64,000 bases of DNA from positions 1-64,000 of the IMG/VR virus record IMGVR_UViG_2778261179_000006. The stretch is one strand, 5' to 3'. Every line of letters begins with the position of its first letter. Within the stretch, counting starts at the first letter, position 1. Source of the DNA: a virus. Its lineage: Duplodnaviria; Heunggongvirae; Uroviricota; Caudoviricetes. The position numbers and the translations under genes are program-made. The notes below the pieces were generated by a model, which saw only the letters and a program-made list of their open reading frames with translations, had not been told where the DNA came from and did not search any database. Below are positions 54,258-54,940 of this stretch, one piece after another.

Positions 54258-54923
54258 ACTTGCCGGGTACGTCTCCGGCGAGGGCTTCCACCTCCGTATG
54301 CTTTTCGGCGCACCGCGCCCTGGCTGCAATTCGGTAACAGGGGATGCACAACCCTGGCTTCCAGCGTGATTAGCGCCTTCAGCATGACGGGATATACCCG
54401 TAAATTCGTGGAACTGTACCCAAAGTGCTGTTAAGCACCGCTGTTACGCTGAAAAGAAAACGCAACAGGAAAGGACGCTGACCAACAGATGGCCCCTTCT
54501 CGTTCATCTGGTTAATCACACCAGCGCCCTTACCTGTTGTGCCTCCCCGTTCCCTAATACACAGACGGGGACACTCTGCGGTCGATTTTTTTGACGGGGG
54601 ACGACTCATACCCCGTGGCATCTGGTTTCTTAGGCCGCTACCATCATCAGATCATCGTTTGCATTTACTTTAATGGTCAGTTTCTAAACCGCCGCAAAGT
54701 CGCTAACCATGACGAAAACCCTGAAAAAAACGCCCACCCGAAGATGGGCAAACTGGAAGCTCGTAACGCACTTCGGCGTTGCCACTTAGGCGCATGGTCA
54801 ACCTGGCAACTCGGTGGTTTGTCTGGGAGGACTAGGCCCAGCCATGCTTACCGCCGCGCCTGTCGCGGCTAACAGCTAAATCGCTCTATAAATCACGATT
54901 CATTGAGGCGATATTACACTAAT

Positions 54924-54940
54924 AAATTTATTAGAGCAAT
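54924..54940 (-). promoter_or_regulatory. C1 operator, exact consensus, at head of the tRNA-ban transcription unit
   Basis: AAATTTATTAGAGCAAT is the reverse complement of ATTGCTCTAATAAATTT. Confidence 0.75.

Follow-up and report, generated by a model that had tools for sequence, protein, structure and literature searches.

In a variant of bacteriophage P1, of which we analysed a stretch of 64,000 nucleotides (nt; IMG/VR record IMGVR_UViG_2778261179_000006, positions 1 to 64,000; referred to as the window), the 670 nt between an exact operator of the C1 repressor and the tRNA genes are the head of the C1-repressed ban operon transcript and form an array of non-coding RNA units rather than an inert leader. 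The minus strand carries all relevant features of this region, and its coordinates are therefore given in descending order. The operator, the promoter and the first, dicF-like unit are already known and ordinary. The second unit, a 188-nt RNA at 54725..54538, is derived from transfer-messenger RNA (tmRNA), begins with an arm that is antisense to the tmRNA of the host and appears to be undescribed so far. Taken as a whole, the observations would be best explained by a non-coding RNA array that contributes the template to a hybrid two-piece tmRNA, a reading to which we assign a probability of roughly 40% from the sequence comparisons presented here.

The tmRNA-derived RNA, referred to as the core, was delimited by a covariance model (R1), by weak matches of Rfam tmRNA models and by covariation. 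Model R1 finds one copy in the window with 128.2 bits (E=6.6e-40), a score that is not independent evidence because P1 is part of the model seed. At the level of primary sequence, P1 positions 54720..54543 (206-383 of the leader used as query) share ~70-73% identity with unannotated intergenic DNA of unrelated virulent phages. In all copies of the core the invariant AAATGCAAACGA precedes a frame of exactly ten codons that is closed by a stop codon; in P1 the resume codon GCA, the 10-codon tag ANDDLMMVAA and the stop codon TAA occupy 54662..54630 and are preceded by U(-5)A(-4). The frame has the hallmarks of a tmRNA frame, in that it lacks a start codon, resumes at GCA after an A-rich stretch with an A at -4, and ends with a stop codon in the loop of a helix-5-like hairpin (54644..54616, boundaries approximate in the P1 variant). 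The tag peptides come in 24 variants, such as ANDDVVLMAA, ANEEMYLAVA and ANDEQFLAVA in addition to that of P1. Across 38 distinct tag coding sequences, codon 10 appears as all four alanine codons, codon 7 as three leucine codons or methionine, codon 4 as Asp, Glu or Asn and codon 6 as a hydrophobic or aromatic residue, and TAA, TAG or TGA stands at one fixed stop position, while the stops of the other two frames vary. This pattern is the expected signature of a translated tmRNA tag (compare ANDENYALAA of Escherichia coli).

Downstream of the tag the core contains two H-type pseudoknots with changes on both sides of their stems; a pseudoknot 1 upstream of the tag is not demonstrable. Pseudoknot A (54615..54581) pairs CGGGG (54615..54611) with CCCCG (54599..54595) in stem 1 and GTCG (54605..54602) with CGAC (54584..54581) in stem 2, and pseudoknot B (54578..54545), with the loop UGUAUUAG, pairs CAGA (54578..54575) with TCTG (54565..54562) and CCCCG (54570..54566) with CGGGG (54549..54545). 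Covariation was assessed in a model-based alignment of 82 rows (A3) covering helix 5 and the two pseudoknots, which was used because a MAFFT alignment (A2) misregisters these elements between subfamilies. In A3, 90.7% of the cells are paired, compared to 75.7% in shuffles, and 19 of the 24 pairs have changed on both sides. The covariation score amounts to 0.373 as opposed to 0.130, with none of 500 shuffles as high and slid controls at 0.05-0.17. Two pseudoknot stems that were kept out of the model, although they are counted in the A3 totals, are paired in 83.7% and 89.1% of cases, percentages that are lowered by rows of the P1/G7C type being out of register for both stems. That the tmRNA-like RNA is a conserved and constrained RNA is well supported.

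An Rfam scan, proposed as a check by the original prediction for this locus, returns tmRNA models that align to the tag region only and do not reach their gathering thresholds: tmRNA_permuted scores 24.1 bits in P1 and 33.5 bits in the phages phiEa2809 and Bp4 (threshold 47), and beta_tmRNA 13.8-17 bits (threshold 84). R1 also matches genuine permuted phage tmRNAs called by ARAGORN that lie outside its seed, with E-values of 2e-7 to 1e-4. The contigs in question are four IMG/VR contigs of ~38% GC (L031, L047, L052 and L066), which carry complete permuted, that is two-piece, tmRNA genes according to ARAGORN, with the tags ANDNVFALAA and ANDEVFALAA and a resume consensus, AGTAAATGCAAACGAT, in common with P1. 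A search of the literature brought up nothing on the tag peptides, on tmRNA near ileZ, argN or argO or on phage RNAs consisting of an mRNA-like domain alone.

The 74 members of the family that we tested stem from P1-like plasmids, from prophage-sized contigs (~40-50 kb) including a lambdoid prophage, and from ViI-like and G7C-like phages. ViI-like carriers comprise Erwinia phage phiEa2809, Serratia phage phiMAM1 and Klebsiella phage Magnus, G7C-like carriers E. coli phage Bp4/ECBP1 and Klebsiella phage KP8; in the virulent phages the core lies in each case on the tRNA strand within the tRNA cluster. A related core is located between the Q antiterminator and holin genes of an E. coli lambdoid prophage. 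When the lambdoid-type core of contig L137 was used as query in a distant blastn search, 656 of 5426 complete E. coli genomes gave a match, with a coverage of at least 80% in 137 genomes; most other matches are partial, with ~80% identity, and lie on P1-like plasmids. In total, 554 of the matching places are on plasmids and 150 on chromosomes. Cores also occur in Pseudocitrobacter, Rouxiella and Pantoea, and each of two scans of viral contigs yielded at least ~120 contigs. Placed behind the ban promoter and its C1 operator in P1, downstream of Q in the lambdoid prophage and behind a sigma-70-like sequence elsewhere, the core stands under a promoter active in the lytic phase, or under a sequence that resembles one. 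Since it is present in unrelated phages without a C1 operator or ban, its role is not specific to a leader function for ban or the tRNAs.

What sets this RNA apart is the arm at its 5' end, a conserved segment formed by the initial ~35 nt of the core (34-41 nt depending on the arm type). In P1 the arm lies at 54719..54686 and is an antisense copy of nt 71-104 of E. coli tmRNA, extending to nt 69-106 across the family. Nucleotides 69-106 of ssrA read AAAAAGCCGC-AAAAAAU-AGUC-GCA-AAC-GAC-GAA-AAC-UA, as verified on the real E. coli ssrA sequence, and run from the pseudoknot 1 3' strand through the A-rich linker and A86 to the resume codon and the first five codons of the tag. Eight arm types align to this segment with scores of 26-42, compared to a shuffle mean of 16 (standard deviation 2.6). 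For the P1 arm, which scores 34 against the reverse complement of ssrA, none of 1000 shuffles scores as high, and the same holds for four further types; for Bp4, phiMAM1 and phiEa2809 between 1 and 5 of 1000 shuffles do. Every one of the 74 arms scores higher on host ssrA (mean 34.6) than on its own downstream template (mean 15.3, equal to background), and all match the same ssrA site, 72 of them beginning at nt 69-71. These scores count Watson-Crick pairs only. An earlier Smith-Waterman test that tolerated G:U pairs, in which 14 of 74 arms beat 30 shuffles, was dropped because a U-rich arm against an A-rich target gave a high background. Within the complementary segment, A86 is essential and frame-setting, in keeping with the described role of U85/A86, whereas rescue tolerates changes to pseudoknot 1 and to the tag sequence (PMC2481249). 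In the phage RNA, the GCA ~23 nt 3' of the arm is preceded by a U(-5)A(-4) of its own, and as core codons 3-6 have diverged, the arm does not bind its own template.

The ban promoter with its Op72 operator drives a cassette of ~181 nt, and read-through RNA carries the 188-nt core, followed by a long hairpin, a spacer and two tRNAs. On this anatomy, a series of steps that would accommodate both the arm and the tag can be proposed. RNase III, RNase E and RNase P would cut the units apart. The tmRNA-like RNA would then anneal to host alanyl-tmRNA, hiding A86 and the resume codon. Tethered next to pseudoknot 1, the phage frame would be offered ~23 nt past the end of the duplex, close to the point at which pseudoknot 1 ordinarily gives way to the template, and stalled ribosomes would be rescued with a phage-specified tag by what amounts to a hybrid two-piece tmRNA. 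The RNA would be made solely once repression by C1 is lifted, i.e. during lytic growth. At least four kinds of phages (P1-like plasmid prophages, lambdoid prophages, ViI-like myoviruses and G7C-like podoviruses) might in this manner encode a 'template-swap' RNA that replaces the tag template of the host, a proposal we make tentatively and would not be surprised to see fail.

Several points weigh against such a hybrid tmRNA. We know of no precedent for a template held by an imperfect ~35-bp duplex alone, and the ribosome may be unable to accommodate a template held in this way. Opposite ssrA G74 the arm is variable (GCGGG, GCGGT, GCGGC, GCGGAC). The motif GUUUUC in the arm is the reverse complement of GAAAAC, and genuine permuted phage tmRNAs carry GAA GUU UUC in their own tag, so that a tag duplication could be the source of part of the arm. 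The arm was compared with the ssrA of E. coli alone, also for phages with Serratia, Erwinia and Klebsiella hosts, and the pair counts of the nested helices in A3 are inflated since these helices were fitted to the model. Finally, in the P1 lineage alone the arm has a strong partner in cis at 54375..54356. Here 54721..54701 and 54375..54356 can form a helix of ~20 bp including G:U pairs (RNAduplex, ~-35 kcal/mol) that would enclose the core and the long hairpin, and that could be a mask in cis or a processing stem for RNase III.

The main rival explanation treats the RNA as a pure antisense inhibitor of tmRNA. The arm would block A86 and the resume codon or provoke cleavage by RNase III, stopping tagging in lytic growth, and the tmRNA-like body would do no more than provide a stable scaffold or, as a mimic, bind S1 or SmpB, its tag never being translated. 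The complementarity of the arm to ssrA, covering as it does the essential A86 and the resume codon, is the best-supported fact and speaks in favour of such an inhibitor, which also calls for no unprecedented ribosome mechanics. It has a parallel in mycobacteriophage DS6A, whose tmRNA consists of the tRNA-like domain only and for which a similar molecule strongly inhibits tmRNA (PMC4131195). What an inhibitor leaves unexplained is everything that marks the tag as translated, namely the exact 10-codon frame, the synonymous alanine and leucine changes, the conservative replacements, the three different stop codons at one position and the conserved U(-5)A(-4). We consider a pure inhibitor possible but doubtful; the remaining alternatives are less likely still.

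One of these holds that the core is evolutionary debris, a decayed tmRNA gene with an inverted duplication whose only present function would be that of a spacer, of a substrate for processing or of a leader attenuating the tRNAs and ban. The tract is indeed visibly mosaic, with repeated junction sequences (CACAACAGGTAAG...) and modules that have been swapped between phages, and its beginning does not fold exceptionally as a single sequence (z=-1.69). Decay is hard to reconcile with compensatory changes in six helices, with constraint on the tag at the protein level, with an arm that has been conserved while its own template diverged from it, and with constraint acting in at least four contexts, i.e. 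P1-like plasmids, prophage-sized contigs including a lambdoid prophage, Ackermannviridae (ViI-like) and Schitoviridae (G7C-like). We regard debris as improbable.

The core could also be the coding piece of a conventional two-piece (permuted) tmRNA, whose acceptor piece escaped recognition and might be a diverged tRNA-like module nearby or elsewhere in the genome. Genuine permuted tmRNAs with the resume consensus do exist in other viral contigs and are weakly matched by our model, and tRNA-like modules with a T-arm occur near many cores, for example at 54103..54025 in the window and as 'tRNA-Cys(aca)' calls in Bp4 and phiMAM1. These latter calls, made by ARAGORN and by the depositors beside the Bp4 and phiMAM1 cores (L006 at 2173-2251 and 1810-1881, L007 at 1780-1871), are tRNA-like yet irregular, comprising a 'Cys' with the anticodon ACA at position 36 and an 'Ala' with the anticodon CGC. 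The core itself lacks a tRNA-like domain, defined by a 7-bp acceptor stem with G3:U70, a T-arm and a 3' CCA, and ARAGORN and Rfam find none adjoining any of ~77 cores. Neither the window nor any P1-type core yields a tmRNA call by ARAGORN, Rfam at E<=0.5 adds nothing, and a scan of all 64 kilobases (kb) for T-arm, acceptor and CCA motifs recovers three tRNAs and nothing else; a canonical tmRNA was ruled out on these grounds. A census of ssrA in RefSeq viruses, exhaustive as of 2014, found tmRNA in mycobacteriophages only (PMC4131195). Within 600 nt of the cores there is no consistent tRNA or tRNA-like partner, a G3:U70 acceptor was not seen, and the first bases of the core are the antisense arm instead of an acceptor strand. 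An acceptor piece upstream was rejected as well: the upstream sequence varies among phage groups, and in contigs of the L157 type (~47 kb) a sigma-70-like promoter sequence recognised by eye (TTGACA, 17-nt spacer, TAGATT, lying ~10 nt before the core with its arm) abuts the core and leaves no room for one. Nor does the 5' region of the core have a conserved cis partner that could form a P2-like helix, the best complements lying at inconsistent positions and in inconsistent contexts. A conventional two-piece tmRNA seems to us very unlikely.

A small protein gene in the gap, such as the 80-amino-acid (aa) open reading frame (ORF) at 54621..54379 or the 'hypothetical proteins' that automatic annotation places over the region in some records (SJ46, JL22), can practically be dismissed, because four gap ORFs gave no Pfam match, because 1-nt length differences in an A-run (6 or 7) and a T-run (6 to 8) shift the frames among near-identical P1 variants, and because conservation tracks the minus-strand RNA helices and not these ORFs. 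The original prediction had seen no convincing ORF here and had named a conserved protein gene in related phages as the finding that would overturn it; with ORFs of at most 80 aa on the transcribed strand and 93 aa on the opposite strand, its view stands.

The surroundings of the array correspond to those of P1, positions 53300-55000 being 99.9% identical to Punavirus P1 (MH422554) and 99.2% to AF234172 and NC_005856. The C1 operator Op72a (Obana; 54940..54924) is an exact copy of the 17-mer ATTGCTCTAATAAATTT and overlaps the stop codon of dmt, a 754-aa ORF ending at 54931. It shows what characterises a C1 operator of P1, the asymmetric 17-bp consensus overlapping a promoter, and is the single site in the window without mismatches, in line with its earlier description as the best match; sites with up to three mismatches number 15 in the 64 kb, compared to 0.27 in shuffles. 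These sites are dispersed over the window, with one mismatch each at, for example, 6321, 22913, 38923 and 58446, which fits the known dispersed C1 regulon. Op72b (54913-54929, plus strand, two mismatches) is the partner half of a bivalent operator. The P1 GenBank record AF234172 annotates both, naming the sites Op72a/Op72b (Obanab), over the promoter P1ban and the last codons of dmt. Mapped onto the window, this promoter occupies 54939..54911, with the -35 element TTGCTC at 54939..54934 and the -10 element TAATAT at 54916..54911, so that transcription from Pban should start near 54904. The distance from the operator to tRNA-Asn (GTT; 54257..54182), the first tRNA downstream on this strand, is 667 nt, as had been estimated. 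It is followed by tRNA-Thr (TGT; 54179..54104), both tRNAs being recognised by ARAGORN and Rfam. A published P1 RNA sequencing paper contains nothing on the gap locus.

The proposal that the gap is a structured leader or a processed small RNA has to be modified more than abandoned. It was right in that the gap is non-coding, lies under the C1-controlled Pban and is rich in conserved RNA structure, but what it saw as one leader is a series of separate modules, the first of them already annotated as dicF-like in the P1 record and the second, tmRNA-derived one unsuspected. It also did not mention the minus-strand direction, the overlap of the operator with the end of dmt or the intrinsic terminator that lies within the 'leader'.

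This first module extends from the promoter to the terminator. At 54869..54778 it contains an element of three hairpins (hp1 54869..54853, hp2 54841..54823, hp3 54810..54778) that shares homology with the leader preceding DicF in the 190-nt precursor from prophage Qin (Faubladier 1990; PMC10448788) and overlaps the 'dicF-like region' of the P1 GenBank record. The first hairpin, GCCGCG-acagg-CGCGGC, is the GC-rich hairpin noted previously at 54855-54871. An unpaired stretch of 27 nt (54777..54751), a candidate small RNA (sRNA) seed, fills the slot held by DicF in Qin. It is followed by an intrinsic terminator (54750..54724) composed of a hairpin (54750..54731) with an 8-bp stem, 5 pairs of which are GC, and a UUCG loop, and of a run of seven T (54730..54724). 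The terminator hairpin is stable in both minimum free energy and centroid folds, and termination at 54724 would yield a Pban RNA of ~181 nt. In distant blastn searches, 54868..54774 share ~78% identity with a segment of 4268 of 5426 complete E. coli genomes, which in K-12 lies between ydfC and dicB, directly 5' of DicF. In the Qin sequence (L003) the region homologous to P1 is at 2501-2597 and DicF at 2622-2673 (Rfam, 76.7 bits), whereas the DicF covariance model (RF00039) gives no match at E<=10 in window positions 51500-56000. DicF itself was ruled out in P1, as the same scan that finds it in Qin does not find it here.

Two species of DicF are known, one of 190 nt whose 5' end results from RNase III cleavage and one of 53 nt generated by RNase E (PMC10448788); judging by its homology, the P1 element is the counterpart of the leader of the longer one. 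The two loci agree in that 54869..54778 of P1 is homologous to the ~137-nt leader in front of DicF, and in their layout, in which a leader and a short RNA are followed by an intrinsic terminator and read-through reaches the genes downstream. They differ in that P1 has no DicF sequence and a different 27-nt stretch in its place, and in that the P1 cassette begins at a repressor-controlled promoter, while that of Qin is cut from a longer mRNA by RNase III. Among 70 distinct variants from viral contigs, compensatory changes occur in hp2 (GGGG/CCCC, TGGG/CCCA, CTGGGG/CTCCAG, CCAGGTG/CACCTG), in hp3 (GTTGCCA/TGGCAAC, GTTGTCA/TGACAAC, GTCGTCA/TGACAGC) and in a CGGU/ACCG helix that becomes CGGC/GCCG in some variants. 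Support for the element from RNAalifold is modest, with double-sided changes in 3 of 17 pairs. The hairpins seen by comparison are not recovered in the unexceptional fold mentioned above, which covers the first 184 nt. The same leader precedes different short RNAs, each with its own terminator, namely DicF in Qin and other payloads in P1 and in the viral contigs L077 and L301; because of these different payloads and terminators, it looks like a reusable platform for sRNA expression or processing. As the three-hairpin element precedes a terminator, we also entertained the idea that it might be an antiterminator of the put type. By comparison, put of HK022 is a promoter-proximal two-stem RNA that binds the zinc-binding domain of the RNA polymerase beta' subunit and suppresses downstream terminators (PMC9378689).

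Beyond the core lies a long hairpin module (54542..54461) with the stem GCACAACAGGTAAGGGCGCTGG / CAGCGTCCTTTCCTGTTGCG, a member of a family of repeated junctions and a candidate site for RNase III. Its stem (CACAACAGGTAAGGG... / ...CCTTTCCTGTTG) is found again behind tRNA-Thr as well as in lambdoid and G7C-like phages, and it is plausible that junction stems of more than 20 bp act as RNase III sites and as recombination joints. A spacer with hairpins (54460..54258), which contains the cis partner of the arm and is conserved in P1-like sequences alone, leads to the tRNA segment (54257..54104). This segment is flanked by repeats of GCACAACAGGTAAGGG and absent from the P1-like variant L022, where the core is fused to a later repeat copy without either tRNA, so that the tRNAs lie in a cassette bounded by the repeat.

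RNA modules continue on the minus strand past the tRNAs (53405-54103) and cover upl and plp, two annotated P1 genes whose plus-strand ORFs (53426-53755 and 53756-54133) lie opposite the operon. Immediately after tRNA-Thr lies a long-stem module with a T-arm-like GGGTTCGAATCCC (54103..54025), and two repeats of GGG(T/G)TCATATCCCAATCTACG are found within 53405-54103. The ORFs upl and plp, the latter overlapping tRNA-Thr, gave no Pfam match, and these 'genes' may be artefacts over non-coding RNA. At 53525..53405 a STnc100-like domain scores 37.8 bits, below the threshold of 47. Domains of this kind, here as in L186 (~+270 to +320 from the tag) and L003 (2700-2830), are closed by a covarying 7-bp helix (UGUGGUG/CGCCACA, UGUGAUG/CAUCACA, UGCGGUG/CACCGCA). 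The family may have arisen from a tRNA, given that the L186 domain combines a D-arm and a T-arm of canonical form with a subsequent A-CCC. The STnc100/PasD prophage sRNAs (RF02076; bioRxiv 10.64898/2026.05.13.724894) are neighbours of the core in the same mosaic tracts, downstream of Q and beside phage tRNAs, yet are unrelated to it in sequence and structure, and that preprint does not mention tmRNA. Between the RNA tract and tRNA-Ile (52327-53371, minus strand) the window lacks tciA, tciB and tciC, unlike reference P1; in their place are an ORF for an SPFH/Band_7 protein of 275 aa (Pfam, E=1e-30) and a hydrophobic ORF of 78 aa.

Among known systems, the coding piece of two-piece tmRNAs (RF04321 / RF01850) resembles the core in its resume context AUAAAU-GCA-AAC-GA, its 10-codon AND...AA tag, the stop codon in the helix-5 loop and the downstream H-type pseudoknots, and the P1 RNA would likewise act as a separate RNA base-paired to a tRNA-like part. 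It is set apart by having neither a 5' acceptor strand nor a P2 strand nor a cognate acceptor piece, by its Rfam score below the gathering threshold, and by a 5' end that is antisense to the template of a different, one-piece tmRNA, that of the host. Mycobacteriophage DS6A (PMC4131195; PMC11915505) offers another phage-borne partial tmRNA that is thought to interfere with host trans-translation, but one that forms a mirror image: DS6A keeps the tRNA-like domain and no tag, whereas the P1 RNA keeps the tag and pseudoknots without a tRNA-like domain and adds an antisense arm. With trans-acting antisense sRNAs of phages and prophages it has in common a short conserved stretch at the 5' end with complementarity to an RNA of the host; it departs from them in that its target is tmRNA and not an mRNA, in the length of the complementarity (~35 nt) and in the fusion of the arm to a copy of the very function that the arm masks.

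Bacteria rescue their ribosomes mainly by trans-translation with tmRNA and SmpB, a system that is a drug target and that affects the growth of phages, for example of lambda-immP22 hybrids and of Mu. A tmRNA-like RNA that carries an anti-tmRNA arm suggests a new way for phages to manipulate ribosome rescue. If the hybrid two-piece tmRNA proposed above is real, it would be the first inter-molecular, cross-species hybrid tmRNA, with rescue continuing in infection under a tag chosen by the phage. It would also explain a widespread, unannotated conserved block beside phage tRNA genes, including such blocks in lambdoid prophages of pathogenic E. coli, and would provide a natural tool for redirecting tagging. 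For the phages themselves, the combination of an antisense arm against the frame-setting nucleotides of tmRNA with a replacement tag would constitute a new viral route to reprogramme host protein quality control.

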